From NCBI GenBank assembly GCA_015660815.1, contig JACSDF010000003.1, positions 133,704 through 197,703 on the forward strand: 64,000 nucleotides of DNA, written 5' to 3'. The translations under genes and the position numbers were made by a program. Positions within the stretch are counted from its first letter, which is position 1. Every line of letters begins with the position of its first letter. The notes beneath the pieces are model-generated. The model saw only the letters and a list, made by a program, of their open reading frames with translations. It did no database searches and was not told the DNA's origin. The DNA is from Actinomycetota bacterium. GTDB lineage: Bacteria > Actinomycetota > Actinomycetes > Nanopelagicales > Nanopelagicaceae. Below are positions 46,604 to 52,686 of the stretch, piece by piece.

Positions 46604-48088
46604 ATGGTTGCACGAGTCAAAGGTCCAACAGATCACGTAGTGATTGTTGGCGCTGGCCTCGCAGGATTAAGTGCGGCGCTTCGCTTAGCCGGTGCCGGAC
46701 GTAAAGTTACGGTCATTGAGCGAGAAGGCGTTCCTGGTGGGCGTAATGGTTTATTGCTCAAGGATGGTTACTCCTTTGATACGGGCCCAAGCGTTCTAAC
46801 AATGCCATCTCTTATTCAAGATGCATTTAGCTGCGTGGGCGAAGACTTGAAGGATTGGTTAGAGCTAATGCCAGTTACTCCGTTGTATCGCGCTTTTTAT
46901 GCCGATGGTTCGCAGATCGATGTGCATGCAGATACCAAGCAGATGGAGGAAGAGATTGCAAGTAAAATCAGCTCCTCCGAGGCCGACGGTTATCGTAGAT
47001 ATGTAGAGTTTGTTACCAAGTTATACAAGTATGAAATGAATGACTTTATTGACCGCAACATAGATTCACCTTTAAATTTATTAACGCCTAATCTTGCGCG
47101 TTTAATAGCTCTTGGTGGTTTCAGGAGGTTATCTCCAAAGGTCAATCAATTCATGAAGGATCCCCGCCTTCAGAAGGTTTACTCCTTTCAAGCAATGTAC
47201 GCTGGAGTAAGTCCACAGCAAGCACTGGCAATTTACGCGGTAATTGCATATATGGACTCAGTTAATGGAGTCTTTTTTCCTAAGGGTGGGATGCATGCGG
47301 TGCCTCGCGCGCTCGCTGCTGCCGCCGAAAAACATGGTGTAGTTTTCAAATACAACACTACTGTTTCAAAAATTGAAGTTGAGCATGGCCGAGCTAAAGC
47401 AGTACTGACTCAGGATGGTCAACGCATTGAATGTGATGCCGTTATTTTAAATCCAGATCTACCAGTAGCCTGGCGCGATCTCTTGGGTAAAACTCCTCTA
47501 TCTGTTAAGCGATTGAATTACTCACCGTCGTGTGTAACGATGTTAGTGGGATCAACTAAAAGCTATGGGTTTGCCGCACATCACAATATCCATTTTGGAA
47601 AGTCATGGGATGGAGTATTTGACGAGCTGATTAAAAAGAAAAAACTGATGAGTGATCCAAGTTTGCTCGTGACTATTCCCTCCAAAGATGATCCAACTTT
47701 GGCACCGGCTGGTAAACACTCATATTACGTTCTCTTTCCAACACCAAATTTGGATGCAGATATTGATTGGACAACGCAGGCAGAGCCATATCGAAATCAT
47801 ATGATTGAGGTTTTGGAACAACGTGGATACACCGGTTTTGGAGATGCGATTGAAACGCAGGTGTTAACTACTCCCCTTGATTGGCAGGCTCAGGGAATGG
47901 AGCGTGGCGCACCATTTGCTAGCGCACACACCTTCTTCCAAACTGGTCCATTTAGACCACGAAATATGGCGGCAGGAATTGAAAACGTTGTCTTTGCTGG
48001 ATCTGGCACCCAACCCGGAGTTGGAGTGCCTATGGTCCTCATTTCCGGGCGTCTTGCCGCTGAGCGAATCGTTGGTCCGGTCGCATAA
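46604..48088 (+). CDS. crtI: Phytoene desaturase
   Basis: VGAGLAG, FDTGPSVLTMP, FQAMYAG..P, GSGTQPGVGVPMVLISG. Confidence 0.92.
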   Translation: MVARVKGPTDHVVIVGAGLAGLSAALRLAGAGRKVTVIEREGVPGGRNGLLLKDGYSFDTGPSVLTMPSLIQDAFSCVGEDLKDWLELMPVTPLYRAFYADGSQIDVHADTKQMEEEIASKISSSEADGYRRYVEFVTKLYKYEMNDFIDRNIDSPLNLLTPNLARLIALGGFRRLSPKVNQFMKDPRLQKVYSFQAMYAGVSPQQALAIYAVIAYMDSVNGVFFPKGGMHAVPRALAAAAEKHGVVFKYNTTVSKIEVEHGRAKAVLTQDGQRIECDAVILNPDLPVAWRDLLGKTPLSVKRLNYSPSCVTMLVGSTKSYGFAAHHNIHFGKSWDGVFDELIKKKKLMSDPSLLVTIPSKDDPTLAPAGKHSYYVLFPTPNLDADIDWTTQAEPYRNHMIEVLEQRGYTGFGDAIETQVLTTPLDWQAQGMERGAPFASAHTFFQTGPFRPRNMAAGIENVVFAGSGTQPGVGVPMVLISGRLAAERIVGPVA

Positions 48089-48991
48089 GTGGATGAGTTA
48101 ACGGCGGCAGGTATCACTGAGCCAGGTTTGCGCGCATCGTATGCAGAGTGCAAACGACTCAATGCCCTGCATGGGAAAACATATTTCCTTGCCACCTTGC
48201 TGCTCCCAAAAGCGAAACGCCCATTTGTACATGCCCTGTATGGCTTTGCCAGATTTGCCGATGAGATCGTTGACGATTTAGCCTCCCAACTGAGCACTGA
48301 AGAAAAAGCTCAAGCACTTTCAAACTGGGGAAATAACGTGCTAAAGGATCTTCGACGCGGATCTAGCGAAGACTTAGTCGGTGGCGCATTGATAGATACC
48401 GTTAATCGATTTGCTATCCCTCATGAATATTTTGAAGCTTTTTTACACTCAATGACAATGGATTTAACGGTCCAGGAGTATGAAACTTTTGATGATTTAA
48501 TGGAATATGTCTATGGATCTGCAGCCGTCATTGGTCTTGAGATGGCACCAATCCTGGGCTTTTCCGACGTCGCGGCTTTAGATTCCGCGAAAAAACTTGG
48601 GACTGCATTTCAGCTTGCAAATTTTATTCGCGATGTTGATGAAGATCTAGATCGTGGCAGAATTTATCTGCCAATTCAAGAGCTTGCACTTCATGGCGTA
48701 ACTCGTGAAATGTTGGAGGCTCGAGTATTGACACCCCAAATTATTGATGCGCTCAAATTCCAAATTGCACGAGTAAGAAAGCTTCAAGCCCAGGCAGCTC
48801 CTGGAATCGCCCTTTTAGATGCATCAAGTCGCCCTTGCATTGAAGCTGCAAGTGAATTGTACTGCGGGATTGTAGACGAAGTTGAGAAAATTGGTTACGA
48901 CATTTTTAATAGACGCGCAAAAACATCAACTATTCGTCGCTTACGAGTTGCTGGCGCTGCTTTTTTAAAGCGTCAATTCGTATCCAGTTAG
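48089..48991 (+). CDS. crtB: Phytoene synthase
   Basis: HGKTY, LYGFARFADEIVD, SMTMDL, FQLANFIRDVDED..RGRIYLP. Confidence 0.94.
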   Translation: MDELTAAGITEPGLRASYAECKRLNALHGKTYFLATLLLPKAKRPFVHALYGFARFADEIVDDLASQLSTEEKAQALSNWGNNVLKDLRRGSSEDLVGGALIDTVNRFAIPHEYFEAFLHSMTMDLTVQEYETFDDLMEYVYGSAAVIGLEMAPILGFSDVAALDSAKKLGTAFQLANFIRDVDEDLDRGRIYLPIQELALHGVTREMLEARVLTPQIIDALKFQIARVRKLQAQAAPGIALLDASSRPCIEAASELYCGIVDEVEKIGYDIFNRRAKTSTIRRLRVAGAAFLKRQFVSS

Positions 48992-49253
48992 ATAGAACTC
49001 CTAACACGAGAGCGAAACCAAAGAGTAGGTCTTCAACGGGTGCAGAAGCTATACGAACTCCAGTTATTACATTTGGGTCATACATGACAATGTTTCGAGA
49101 GGTTAGCCACCAATTAGTCAGCAACTGAAAGCCCAAGATAATTGCATAAGAGGTCCAGAAAACTCTGCGTCTCATTAAACGAATCTCTGTTATGTAGTAG
49201 TCAAAGACAATGGCGCAAAGAACGGCAAAGATCGCTAATTGTGTGTAACTCAT
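48930..49253 (-). CDS. crtYd: Heterodimeric lycopene cyclase subunit (CrtYd-type)
   Basis: Small hydrophobic protein with PVEDLLFG motif; start placed at ATG 49253. Confidence 0.8.
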   Translation of the reverse strand: MSYTQLAIFAVLCAIVFDYYITEIRLMRRRVFWTSYAIILGFQLLTNWWLTSRNIVMYDPNVITGVRIASAPVEDLLFGFALVLGVLSNWIRIDALKKQRQQLVSDE

Positions 49254-49255
49254 CT

Positions 49256-49576
49256 CTAAACTGGCCAATCTTTTTTAACACGTCTGACCGCCTCGATTGT
49301 CATAATCGCTGCAATAGGAACAATGATGAAAAACAGGTATTCCTCAAGTGGAATCCCGAAGGGACCAAAAATTCCGAGTATTTGATCCCCATCAAATCGC
49401 CAGTGCCCACTTCGAATTGCATAGGCATCCCATGCAATAAATAGAAAGGAAATCGGAGCAACTGCCAATATCACACGCTTAATGCGCTTAAGCACTCCAA
49501 CTTTCAAAAAGAGCTCTAACCAGAAAGAACCAATGATTGTGAAGACAATCATGGTGAGATAGCCAAATTTAAGCAC
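49256..49576 (-). CDS. crtYc: Heterodimeric lycopene cyclase subunit (CrtYc-type)
   Basis: FIAWD..AI..GHW.F, GIPLEEYLFF motif. Confidence 0.82.
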   Translation of the reverse strand: MLKFGYLTMIVFTIIGSFWLELFLKVGVLKRIKRVILAVAPISFLFIAWDAYAIRSGHWRFDGDQILGIFGPFGIPLEEYLFFIIVPIAAIMTIEAVRRVKKDWPV

Positions 49577-49598
49577 GGGGTAACGCTACTCTACGAAC

Positions 49599-49680
49599 TA
49601 CGGGAGCCCATCAAGGCTGAGAGGGTCTGAAATTCAGACCGACCGTTTGACCAATCCGGTAATGCGGATGTGGAAAGGAA
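49599..49680 (+). ncRNA. TPP-class riboswitch, variant with altered P4/P5 (pyrophosphate-sensor) region
   Basis: P2 CGG/CCG, P3 AGCC/GGCT, conserved CTGAGA, P3a GGTCTGA/TCAGACC, L5 GTAATG, P4 CCA/TGG; J4/5 and J5/4 deviate from the GAU/CGU consensus; upstream of pnuC. Confidence 0.85.
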
Positions 49681-49686
49681 TCAATC

Positions 49687-50262
49687 ATGTCAACAATTCT
49701 CTTCACTGCTTGGGGCTACGGCGTATCAATTTTGGAAGCCGTTGCCGCATTAGTCTCCTTCATTGGAGTCTGGCTAGGTACAACTGGTAAGCGCATCACA
49801 TGGCCTTGGTGGGCTGCAAGTAGCACTCTCTATATGATCTTCTTTTATCAAGCAGATCTATTTGCAAGTGCAGCCGCCCAGATAGTTTTTATTATCGCCG
49901 CATATTTAGGGTGGCGGGATTGGGCACCGACAGGTGCTAAACCAGGTCCATTATCTAATCGCAACCGCGCACAATGGGCAGCTCTAACCATAGTTAGCGT
50001 TGCTCTACTTACACCTTTGCTCACAAGTTTAGGTGCGGCGGCAACGTGGCAGGATGCAATTTTATTTGTTGGAAGTTTGATCGCCCAAATATTGATGGTC
50101 TATGAAAAAATTGAATCCTGGGTTGTATGGCTAATCGTAGATGCTGCAGCGACTTATCTTTATGCCAGTCTGGGATATTGGTTCACAGCGCTTTTGTATT
50201 TTGCTTTTACTATCATTGCACTCATTGGATGGAAGCGCTGGAATGACTCTTATAGCCATTGA
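49687..50262 (+). CDS. pnuC: PnuC-family vitamin transporter (probable thiamine transporter, PnuT-like)
   Basis: 7 TMs, WPWW, YLGWRDW, WQDA, K.ESWVVWLIVD; preceded by a TPP-class riboswitch. Confidence 0.88.
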   Translation: MSTILFTAWGYGVSILEAVAALVSFIGVWLGTTGKRITWPWWAASSTLYMIFFYQADLFASAAAQIVFIIAAYLGWRDWAPTGAKPGPLSNRNRAQWAALTIVSVALLTPLLTSLGAAATWQDAILFVGSLIAQILMVYEKIESWVVWLIVDAAATYLYASLGYWFTALLYFAFTIIALIGWKRWNDSYSH

Positions 50263-50734
50263 CGGTCCTGCTGGGGCCGGGAAAACAACTTTGGCTACCA
50301 AATTTGAAAGGGATTTGTCACTCAATAATTCGGTCTCGGTCATTCACATGGATGATTTATATGCTGGCTGGGAAAATGCACTTGATGAGCAATTAACGCA
50401 AAAACTCAAAGTGATCGTCGAAGCATTCACATCACACAACGCCTTCACGATTTCAATTTTCAACTGGAGTTCAAACTCCTTTGATTCATTTCGAACAATA
50501 GAGCCGACCGACATCCTAATTATTGAAGGCGTTGGAGCGGGTCAAAAAGTAGTTCGTGATGCTGGCGCAACGCTGTATTGGCTCGATATCGAACCCTCCA
50601 TTGGCTTGGAGCGAGTTCTTGCCCGTGATGGTCTCCGCATTGAACTCCAGATGCAAACATGGCAAATCGACCAGGCGAGTTTCTTCGAGAGTGATTTAAC
50701 ACGCAACCATGCAGACCACATCATTACTTCATAG
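50243..50734 (+). CDS. Small P-loop kinase (uridine kinase/NRK-like fold)
   Basis: IAIDGPAGAGKTT, IHMDDLY, IIEGVGA, RDG; start placed at ATG 50243, overlapping the pnuC end by 20 bp. Confidence 0.8.
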   Translation: MTLIAIDGPAGAGKTTLATKFERDLSLNNSVSVIHMDDLYAGWENALDEQLTQKLKVIVEAFTSHNAFTISIFNWSSNSFDSFRTIEPTDILIIEGVGAGQKVVRDAGATLYWLDIEPSIGLERVLARDGLRIELQMQTWQIDQASFFESDLTRNHADHIITS

Positions 50735-50790: not shown

Positions 50791-52686
50791 ATGTCGGATC
50801 TATCGGGTGAGCTCATTGATAGCCGCTATCAATTAATTCGACAGGTAGCCAATGGTGGGATGGCATCTATATATGAGGCCATAGATACTCGCCTAGATCG
50901 CAAAGTTGCCGTAAAAATCATGCACCCACATCTTGCTCAAGACGATGTCTATGTCACGCGTTTCATTCGTGAAGCTAAAGCGGCAGCAGCGCTTTCGCAC
51001 CCCAATATTGTCGCCGTACAGGATCAAGGTTGGAATCAAAATGGAGTCCCAGCAGTCTTCCTAGTCATGGAGCTGATTGAAGGAAGTACATTACGTGAAT
51101 ACTTTAATGAGCGCGGACGCTTCGAAATCAAGGATGCACTTAATTATCTAACTCCAATCTTGAGCGCACTGAGTGCAGCACACTCGATTGGAATAGTGCA
51201 TAGAGATATTAAGCCAGAAAATATCTTGGTCTCACATGAAGGTCGCGTCAAAATCGCTGACTTTGGTTTAGCACGCGGTGACGTCATCGGTTCGACCATG
51301 ACTGCAGAGTCGAGTGTCATTCTAGGTTCGGTCTCATACCTTTCCCCCGAACAAGTCCAGCGAGGAATTGCCGATGCACGAAGTGACGTCTATGCCGTCG
51401 GGATAGTCGCCTTTGAGATGCTCACGGGCGAGAAACCATTCTCAGGTGATACACCAATCCAAATTGCTTATATGCATGTCAATGAAGATGTTCCATCGGT
51501 ACGATCAAAGCGCAGAGAGATTCCCCAAGCATTGGATGAGTTAATATCTCGCGCCACTAACCGTGATCCAGATTTGCGACCTCGAAACGCCGGCGAGTTT
51601 CTCAAGGATTTAGAAGTAATTGCATTGGGGTTAGATCCTAAGAAGAACCAGATGAGACTTGACCTTGATTTACCGGTTGAACCTATTCGTGTGCCATCAC
51701 GCACAAAAGTAAAGCCCGCAATTATTCCTGAAGCGAGCGTTGAAATCAAAGAGACGACTAAACAAATTCGACGAAGAGATGAAAAGAAACATCGAACGAG
51801 CAATCGAGTACGACGAAATAGAAAAATCGCACTCTTGCTTGCAGTCGCGCTAGGAGTGGGCGGTTGGTACACACTTGTAGGACCGGGCTCACGCATAGTT
51901 GTGCCCTCTGTGGTTGGAGGCACTTACGATGATGCGGTTTCTGCATTCACTCCTCTTGGAATTACGAATATTTCCGTGGTAAATCGCTTTGATGAAGAAA
52001 ACTCTTCTGGAACGATTATTGAATCCATACCACCTGGTGGAGGCCGTATCGAAACTGGTGAGAAAGTTACATTAATTATCTCCAAAGGAGCAGAGCGCTA
52101 TACGATCACATCGCTAGTTGGATTAACTCCTGCGGCAGCAGCTGCATCGATCAATAAAAGCCCTTTGAAGGTTGGTAAGAACATTGAGGTATTCAACAAT
52201 GCGATCCCAAAGGGTTTTGTCATTGGCTCGAAACCCAAAGTAGGTACCAAGGTTAAGCGAAATTCAGTGGTGAATATTATTGTGAGTAAAGGCATCGAAA
52301 CCTTTCTAATTCCATCCTACGTTGGTCTTAGTGGTGAGCAGGCACTCAATGAATTGACCGAATCGGGTTTTAATGTGGAAAGCATTTATTCCTTTAATGA
52401 AAACATTCTGGCGGGAACAGTAATATCCCAAAACCCACTAGGAAATTCACAAGCAGCTAAAGGGAGTTCAATTAACCTCATCGTCTCAAAGGGAACAGAA
52501 TTTGTTTTTGTTCCAAATGTCTTCTCATTAGACGAGGTAACTTCAGTGAGAATGCTTGAGGATTTGGATCTTAAAGTTATAGTGAAAAGAGTAGGAGTGA
52601 TGACAACGAAAAAAACCACCACTATCTCCCCTAAAGTGGGCAGTAAAGTTAAACGTGGCAGCACTATCACAATTACCGTAAGGTAG
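50791..52686 (+). CDS. PASTA-domain Ser/Thr protein kinase (PknL/PkaF-like)
   Basis: GGMA, VAVK, HRDIKPEN, DFG, YLSPEQ; one TM; several PASTA repeats. Confidence 0.93.
   Translation: MSDLSGELIDSRYQLIRQVANGGMASIYEAIDTRLDRKVAVKIMHPHLAQDDVYVTRFIREAKAAAALSHPNIVAVQDQGWNQNGVPAVFLVMELIEGSTLREYFNERGRFEIKDALNYLTPILSALSAAHSIGIVHRDIKPENILVSHEGRVKIADFGLARGDVIGSTMTAESSVILGSVSYLSPEQVQRGIADARSDVYAVGIVAFEMLTGEKPFSGDTPIQIAYMHVNEDVPSVRSKRREIPQALDELISRATNRDPDLRPRNAGEFLKDLEVIALGLDPKKNQMRLDLDLPVEPIRVPSRTKVKPAIIPEASVEIKETTKQIRRRDEKKHRTSNRVRRNRKIALLLAVALGVGGWYTLVGPGSRIVVPSVVGGTYDDAVSAFTPLGITNISVVNRFDEENSSGTIIESIPPGGGRIETGEKVTLIISKGAERYTITSLVGLTPAAAAASINKSPLKVGKNIEVFNNAIPKGFVIGSKPKVGTKVKRNSVVNIIVSKGIETFLIPSYVGLSGEQALNELTESGFNVESIYSFNENILAGTVISQNPLGNSQAAKGSSINLIVSKGTEFVFVPNVFSLDEVTSVRMLEDLDLKVIVKRVGVMTTKKTTTISPKVGSKVKRGSTITITVR

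Follow-up and report, generated by a model that had tools for sequence, protein, structure and literature searches.

Bacteria of the acI lineage (Nanopelagicales) are among the most abundant in fresh water and are obligate vitamin B1 auxotrophs. Kang et al. (2017) found, with the Rfam model RF00059, a THI element upstream of a pnuC-like gene of acI, which was the basis for the PnuT proposal, and acI strains were described as thiamine auxotrophs that lack nearly all enzymes of thiamine synthesis and salvage (PMC5301498). In the TPP riboswitch class to which that element was simply assigned (RF00059; E. coli thiM aptamer, PDB 2GDI), G60, C77 and G78 contact the metal and the pyrophosphate and rank with the best-conserved bases (PMC3764141), and aptamers in which A61, C63, C77 or G78 has been changed are unresponsive to TPP (bioRxiv 10.1101/2025.01.21.634073). 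The passage on variants in McCown et al. [quoted passage not shown] Our literature search found no full published study of the Breaker laboratory variants, and Rfam 15 holds no separate family for them, so that the riboswitch field has mentioned this kind of variant without a detailed description. A further thiamine-related class, the HMP-PP riboswitch (thiS motif; Atilho et al., 2019), is functionally also a minimalist relative, but it is a small terminator-embedded hairpin upstream of thiS and thiazole genes (PMC6478431).

The window, that is, the whole stretch of 64,000 nucleotides that was analysed, comes from the Nanopelagicales (Ca. Planktophila) and contains an element of the same locus type and lineage as that of Kang et al. 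(2017), and such leaders are the only thiamine-responsive regulators of acI/Nanopelagicales reported so far. Infernal alignment to RF00059, the minimum free energy (MFE) fold and the homologues together identify 49600-49673 (plus strand) as an aptamer derived from the TPP riboswitch. It lies in an intergenic gap of 110 nt, with a lycopene-cyclase gene (49256-49576, minus strand, divergent) on one side and, on the other, an ORF on the plus strand with its start at 49687. The features of the leader and of the two genes downstream are as follows.

49587-49592, plus strand: candidate -10 hexamer TACTCT, read from the sequence, which predicts a transcription start at about 49597-49600
49600-49646, plus strand: pyrimidine-sensor arm (Infernal alignment to RF00059)
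49600-49603 with 49643-49646, plus strand: P2, A49600-G49603 with C49643-U49646 (Infernal alignment)
49606-49608 with 49615-49617, plus strand: P3, G49606-C49608 with G49615-C49617 (Infernal alignment)
49617-49622, plus strand: J3-2 T-loop CUGAGA (Infernal alignment)
49624-49630 with 49634-49640, plus strand: P3a (Infernal alignment)
49647-49650, plus strand: J2-4 UUGA, with G49649 and A49650 conserved and A49650 corresponding to the junction adenosine A53
49651-49673, plus strand: collapsed P4-P5 arm of eight continuous base pairs with the L5 hexaloop and one bulged G (MFE fold)
49651-49658, plus strand: 5' side of the arm, CCA-A-UCCG
49659-49664, plus strand: L5, GUAAUG
49665-49673, plus strand: 3' side of the arm, CGGA-U at 49665-49669, bulged G49670 and UGG at 49671-49673
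49674-49675, plus strand: AA tail, corresponding to canonical G83/A84
49676-49679, plus strand: Shine-Dalgarno (SD) sequence AGGA, immediately after the AA tail, with the AUG at 49687
49687-50262, plus strand: Pnu-family transporter gene, 191 aa (PF04973, 5.4e-37; TIGR01528, 5.7e-21)
50243-50734, plus strand: P-loop kinase gene, uridine-kinase-like, 163 aa, overlapping the pnu stop codon by 20 nt

At gathering thresholds, the window as a whole gave no match in a default scan with Rfam 15. The RF00059 search that a preliminary description of this DNA had proposed was run as a sensitive scan of 49450-49800 (351 nt), and RF00059 was the sole credible Rfam match there, covering 49590-49692 with 37.2 bits (E = 6.4e-6), which is below the gathering score of 54.3 bits. 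Seventeen further elements with a collapsed arm, scored individually against RF00059, reached 28-43 bits, all below the threshold, and 20 diverse loci gave zero matches at the gathering threshold. The canonical relative L092 and the near-canonical L091 scored 63.2 and 58.9 bits against the same model. The Rfam gathering threshold thus misses the entire lineage of elements. When the 64-kb window was searched with a model of the lineage, only the one element was found, with no second copy.

The alignment to RF00059 is clean over P2, P3, CUGAGA and P3a, and it requires deletions in J4-5 and J5-4. The preliminary description had called the pyrimidine-sensor arm canonical and L5 present, which agrees with the clean alignment and with the homologues, where CUGAGA and RUAAUG are invariant; its reading of the other arm (CCA-AT-CCG-GTAATG-CGG-ATG-TGG) reproduces the letters of the window exactly. 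It had further suggested that this arm zips into one helix with a single bulged G. The same structure appears in the MFE fold of 49599-49689, which consists of P2, P3, P3a and a continuous 8-bp P4-P5 hairpin with G49670 bulged (z = -2.05), and 76/76 distinct sequences form the pair that has taken the place of the pocket. In the window this pair is A49654-U49669, sitting in place of the canonical J4-5/J5-4 pyrophosphate pocket, where U62 and C77 face the pyrophosphate. In the fold of 49599-49689, GGAAAGGAAUCAAUCAUG is unpaired, and both the SD sequence and the AUG are free. MFE folds that include the coding region also contain a long-range pairing of AGCCC in P3 (49605-49609) with UGGGGCU (49712-49718; codons 9-11, Trp-Gly-Tyr), which was rejected as an expression platform because it needs a Gly wobble base that varies in homologues, and which is probably coincidental. 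Compared with the TPP riboswitch, the element shares P2-P3-P3a with the invariant aminopyrimidine-binding CUGAGA T-loop, J2-4 and the adenosines after P4, the L5 motif NUAAUG, the two arms and the link to a thiamine uptake gene. However, it lacks the J4-5/J5-4 loop (G60 and A61 are deleted, C77 and G78 replaced or absent), and it lacks P1, the transcript being predicted to start at P2 and the SD sequence taking the place of the P1 3' strand.

A protein-guided scan with one genome per species gave 80 loci, all from Nanopelagicales or Ca. Planktophila MAGs or isolates (Pnu identity 54-94%), and the element lies upstream of pnu in 80/80 of them, the aptamer being complete in 79 and cut by the contig end in one (L077). 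A metagenome scan anchored on one distant Pnu protein added 80 loci, with the element present in 79/80 as well as at five loci fetched by protein look-up; outgroup Pnu loci were obtained by a 50% representative search and contig look-ups. The element is kept at about 164 pnu loci, with Pnu proteins down to about 41% identical. In a MAFFT alignment of the window and 73 distinct homologues (alignment A1, 74 sequences), the named structure was paired in 95.4% of cells and the covariation score was 0.296, compared with 0.143 for shuffled alignments (0/500 shuffles reached the observed value), and shifting the pair partners abolished the covariation signal. A wider alignment was made with Infernal from 76 distinct sequences. 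Two-sided variation was seen at 16 of the 22 pairs, 0/500 shuffles matched any measure, and 95-96% of cells were paired over both alignments. All seven pairs of P3a show two-sided change and the end pair of P2 alternates between AU and GC, while CUGAGA, the P2 and P3 cores and the flanking G-C pairs do not vary among the 74 sequences. In alignment A1 the A of J2-4 is invariant and its G nearly so, and the G-A-A after P4 is invariant or nearly so. L5 is invariably RUAAUG, with G in 54 and A in 20 of the 74 sequences at its first position; its docking onto P3 is assumed from the class.

The preliminary description had read the change of P4 from CCU/AGG to CCA/UGG as a sign that the structure is under selection. 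Selection on the structure is upheld by the covariation, but this specific change is a weaker argument than was claimed, because, owing to the sliding bulge, no pair of the arm is less regular than the third pair of P4. Restriction of the changes to this one genome, which the same description had named as an outcome that would speak against it, was not found, as about 160 of the 164 pnu-linked homologues have the collapsed helical arm. The covariation among homologues shows that the collapsed arm is under selection across the whole lineage and is neither decayed nor private to one genome. A TPP riboswitch in decay, no longer functional, would account for the sub-threshold Rfam score and for the missing P1. 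Nevertheless, retention upstream of pnu at about 164 loci with Pnu identity down to about 41%, pairing in 95-96% of cells, compensatory change at 16/22 pairs and invariant ligand-contact bases leave this reading hardly credible, and the covariation effectively refutes it.

The position of A49654-U49669 is paired in 73/74 sequences of the MAFFT set (27 AU, 28 GU and 18 GC) and in 76/76 of the wider Infernal set (31 GU, 29 GC, 13 AU and 3 UA). The next 5' nucleotide pairs with either of two 3' nucleotides in 74/74, so the arm is helical throughout, with a single bulge that slides on the 3' side. When the 164 pnu-linked elements were classed by the unpaired nucleotides within the arm, 129 had one unpaired 3' nucleotide, 26 had none, three had two unpaired 3' nucleotides, two had one unpaired 5' nucleotide (L081 and L091), three had other irregular forms, and one, L092, had the canonical loop. 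In 160/164 the J4-5/J5-4 loop with G60, C77 and G78 is absent, and the arm is helical, with a Watson-Crick or wobble pair and a bulge of 0-2 nt whose base and position vary and which lies on either strand in the outgroups. The three bulge-free elements L084-86 have a perfect 8-bp CCAGUUCG/CGAAUUGG hairpin. The arm of L092 reads CCUG-U-CCGG GUAAUG CCGG-CGU-AGG, and this canonical relative as well as the intermediates L091, L081 and L097 all stand in front of homologous pnu genes. The length of the arm is strictly kept, and the helix is rich in G-U pairs. Infernal places G49670 on G78, so that a G78 equivalent is arguable for this single sequence; among the 74 sequences the position holds G in 36, C in 21, U in 15 and A in 2, and it is absent in 26/164 elements. 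These counts agree with the earlier statement that the equivalents of G60, C77 and G78, whose role is taken from PMC3764141, are missing or replaced. Because the contact bases are variable or absent and the role of G60, C77 and G78 is known, canonical pyrophosphate recognition is absent in the lineage. Judged by the alignments, the canonical pyrophosphate pocket is lost, and the HMP pocket, L5 and the junction adenosines are under strong constraint.

The aptamers might still be selective for TPP, with the pyrophosphate read anew, for example by hydrated Mg2+ bound at the bulge or within the major groove of the helix with its many G-U pairs, so that the structure would have drifted and the ligand would be unchanged. 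TPP is a physiologically sensible feedback signal for an importer, L092 with its canonical aptamer has the identical leader layout, the arm length and L5 are strictly kept, and 28/74 sequences (31/76 in the wider set) have G-U at the pair that stands in for the pocket. However, the candidate contact bases are unconserved, the bulge being G, C, U, A or, as in the perfect 8-bp hairpin of L084-86, absent; a mutated canonical pocket discriminates against TPP (bioRxiv 10.1101/2025.01.21.634073); and similar variants reportedly bind thiamin about equally to TPP, according to the passage on them in PMC5473149. We regard retained TPP selectivity as unlikely.

With moderate confidence we favour a sensor of the thiamine family that would discriminate the phosphorylation state less or not at all and would repress translation of the pnuT-kinase operon. 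In the passage of McCown et al. (2017) on the variants, which refers to Roth et al. (in preparation), the mutations are confined to the P4-P5 core, as they are here; the likeness is one of description, since that passage gives no sequences, structures or taxa, and it makes no mention of a helical arm, an absent P1 or the Nanopelagicales pnuT-kinase context (PMC5473149). For the THI element of Kang et al., likewise, neither the change in the arm nor the absence of P1 nor the linked kinase was noted (PMC5301498). The element and the concept are each on record already, and the preliminary description overstated the novelty. What is new is the explicit link of the acI element to the variant concept, together with the anatomy (an arm that is helical with a variable bulge, the absence of P1 and an SD sequence at the P1 position), the series from canonical to collapsed arms and the linked kinase. 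Since the Breaker laboratory had already put forward non-discrimination between thiamin and TPP in 2017, the advance lies in documentation and context and is not a new principle. The more than 140 distinct sequences form a natural series of a riboswitch that retains one half of its ligand pocket and drops the other, and the set provides a ready test of the share that pyrophosphate recognition has in TPP riboswitch function.

The preliminary description had also proposed a start of transcription that leaves almost no P1. In 127/140 distinct elements, the last base of a TANNNT hexamer lies 6-9 nt upstream of where P2 begins, the sequence in between being unconserved, and this spacing predicts a transcription start at P2 or within 1-3 nt of it; the P1 pairs were flagged as non-standard by Infernal, so that the proposal holds with the start site as a prediction. 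A P1 formed from the few nucleotides before P2 was rejected, as the two nucleotides 5' of P2 show no covariation with the tail. A scan with the E. coli-type sigma-70 consensus gave zero matches, this consensus being uninformative for Actinobacteria, and the RNA-seq reads found form small contigs within the coding region, with no 5' ends. The start codon lies 17-27 nt past L5 in 139/140 distinct elements, about 10-14 nt past P4, and the SD sequence starts 1-5 nt past the conserved G-A-A among the homologues. The placement of the SD sequence directly after P4, as previously described, is therefore confirmed for the window (AGGA at 49676-49679, after AA) and kept among homologues. No terminator was found in 49400-49800, including the stretch between the aptamer and the start codon. 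Because the SD sequence adjoins P4, control is probably exerted at translation, as was proposed earlier, and the terminator-free leader is consistent with this. No covarying anti-SD helix was found, and the SD sequence is unpaired in the MFE fold; an anti-SD pairing through the P2 3' strand and J2-4 (CCGUUUG), which is occasional in the ensemble, was rejected because it shows no covariation. Since the SD sequence is free in every secondary-structure model, switching would have to rest on tertiary or steric effects. The result is a minimal design, a P1-free aptamer with an adjoining SD sequence.

The element with the canonical pocket, L092 (L092:791-897), also has the SD-abutting layout and no good P1 according to Infernal. 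It has no TANNNT within 4-13 nt of P2, and a TACTGT lies about 20 nt upstream. Since L092 shares the layout, the P1-poor, SD-abutting design predates the collapse of the arm, and in L092 it presumably works as a TPP-repressed translational switch. In the L104 group, a tRNA gene lies just upstream and there is no TANNNT within 13 nt of P2.

The ORF at 49687-50262 belongs to the Pnu family by PF04973 and TIGR01528, in line with the importer suggested earlier, and its product is a candidate thiamine uniporter PnuT, the assignment following PMC5301498. The kinase gene is translationally coupled to pnu and lies directly downstream of it in 80/80 genome loci. Its product matches Pfam AAA_18 and PRK, and NCBIfam PRK06547 below the cut-off; a profile of 20 homologues matched PDB 1rz3 (1e-14), uridine kinases (3e-10) and NRK1 (3e-5) and also phosphoribulokinases, and a single-sequence AlphaFold model had a pLDDT of 33. 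As Pnu transporters work by facilitated diffusion with trapping by a kinase (PMC5749112), the operon looks like a thiamine uniporter with its trapping kinase. On this reasoning from gene order and domain content, the 163-aa protein is a candidate thiamine-trapping kinase. The uridine-kinase fold is not known for thiamine kinase activity, and the operon offers a candidate new thiamine kinase. In L092, L091 and L081, with canonical or intermediate arms, pnu is followed by an AAA_28-type kinase, as it is for the riboswitch-free pnu genes L082 and L089, and the uridine-kinase-like kinase is present at all tested loci with a collapsed arm. This coupling of aptamer type and kinase family may be simple co-inheritance or a functional link.

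Under the favoured reading of a sensor with little or no discrimination, the leader would be a descendant of the TPP riboswitch that is shared by the whole lineage and stands at the very 5' end of the Nanopelagicales (acI) pnuT-kinase mRNA. It has retained the aminopyrimidine arm (P2, P3, CUGAGA, P3a), the P3-docking L5 and the junction adenosines and has lost the Mg2+-pyrophosphate pocket and P1. Compounds of the thiamine family would be bound through the HMP ring with little or no dependence on the pyrophosphate, and the readout would be the summed pool of thiamine, TMP and TPP and not TPP alone. Sensing of the pool would suffice where, as in this auxotroph, there are no biosynthetic intermediates with an HMP moiety to be excluded. 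Side-by-side docking of the two arms, driven by the ligand, would pin the GAA tail and the SD sequence that adjoins P4, and the pinned SD sequence would lower translation initiation of the transporter and the coupled kinase, giving an OFF switch in which the SD sequence is occluded by tertiary or steric means. Pyrophosphate contacts give much of the affinity of canonical aptamers, so the collapsed aptamer might bind too weakly unless new contacts have evolved; the G-U-rich arm of fixed length could serve as an alternative metal-phosphate site.

The preliminary description had also admitted a pyrimidine precursor as the ligand, which is unlikely because acI reportedly lacks nearly all enzymes of thiamine synthesis and salvage (PMC5301498). 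More broadly, another HMP-containing compound imported by Pnu (HMP, AmMP or a degradation product) might be sensed, and the aminopyrimidine pocket is indeed the only one that is clearly retained. We consider this very improbable, as a precursor would be useless to acI with nearly all thiamine synthesis and salvage enzymes missing (PMC5301498), the kept two-arm architecture with L5 and P3 points to a ligand whose length lets it span both arms, and the HMP-PP class is quite different and embedded in a terminator (PMC6478431). The window element, in contrast to that class, has two full arms, a terminator-free leader and a Pnu transporter gene downstream.

Selectivity for unphosphorylated thiamine, the transport substrate, against TPP is another reading, possibly with inverted logic in which the substrate would induce importer and kinase; for example, folding with the ligand might protect the 5' end or let an SD/anti-SD duplex stack at the place of P1. 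A negative pyrophosphate beside an unbroken helix with no metal pocket would be disfavoured, and the thiazolium cation would not; the aptamer begins at the predicted 5' end of the transcript with the SD sequence in place of the P1 3' strand; and the kinase family switches together with the full collapse of the arm. However, canonical L092 with an equal layout argues for unchanged OFF logic, and a trapping kinase should keep free intracellular thiamine very low, so that we judge thiamine selectivity to be quite unlikely. Its most far-reaching form, in which the collapse was an adaptive change of both signal and mechanism towards a TPP-discriminating, P1-free sensor of unphosphorylated thiamine with the SD sequence as the missing strand, is speculative and in our estimation improbable. 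The SD sequence would act as that strand either because the GAA-SD tail docks in a ligand-dependent manner or because an SD/anti-SD duplex stacks at the P1 position. If this is true, the most abundant freshwater bacteria would control a uniporter-kinase pair in response to its substrate.

Several minor observations concern the variety of the elements and the neighbouring genes. In some lineages there is a P3a insertion or a longer P3 (L130:806-896, L160:343-434, L104, L135, L142 and L155). Upstream in the window, a carotenoid cluster (46604-49576) is divergent from the riboswitch promoter region, with crtI at 46604-48088, crtB at 48089-48991 and lycopene-cyclase half-genes at 48930-49268 and 49256-49576, on the minus strand. 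After the pnuT-kinase pair, in the same orientation, follows a gene for a PknB-like Ser/Thr kinase with PASTA domains (50791-52686), and the same order and orientation recur in distant relatives (L084:1961-3871).
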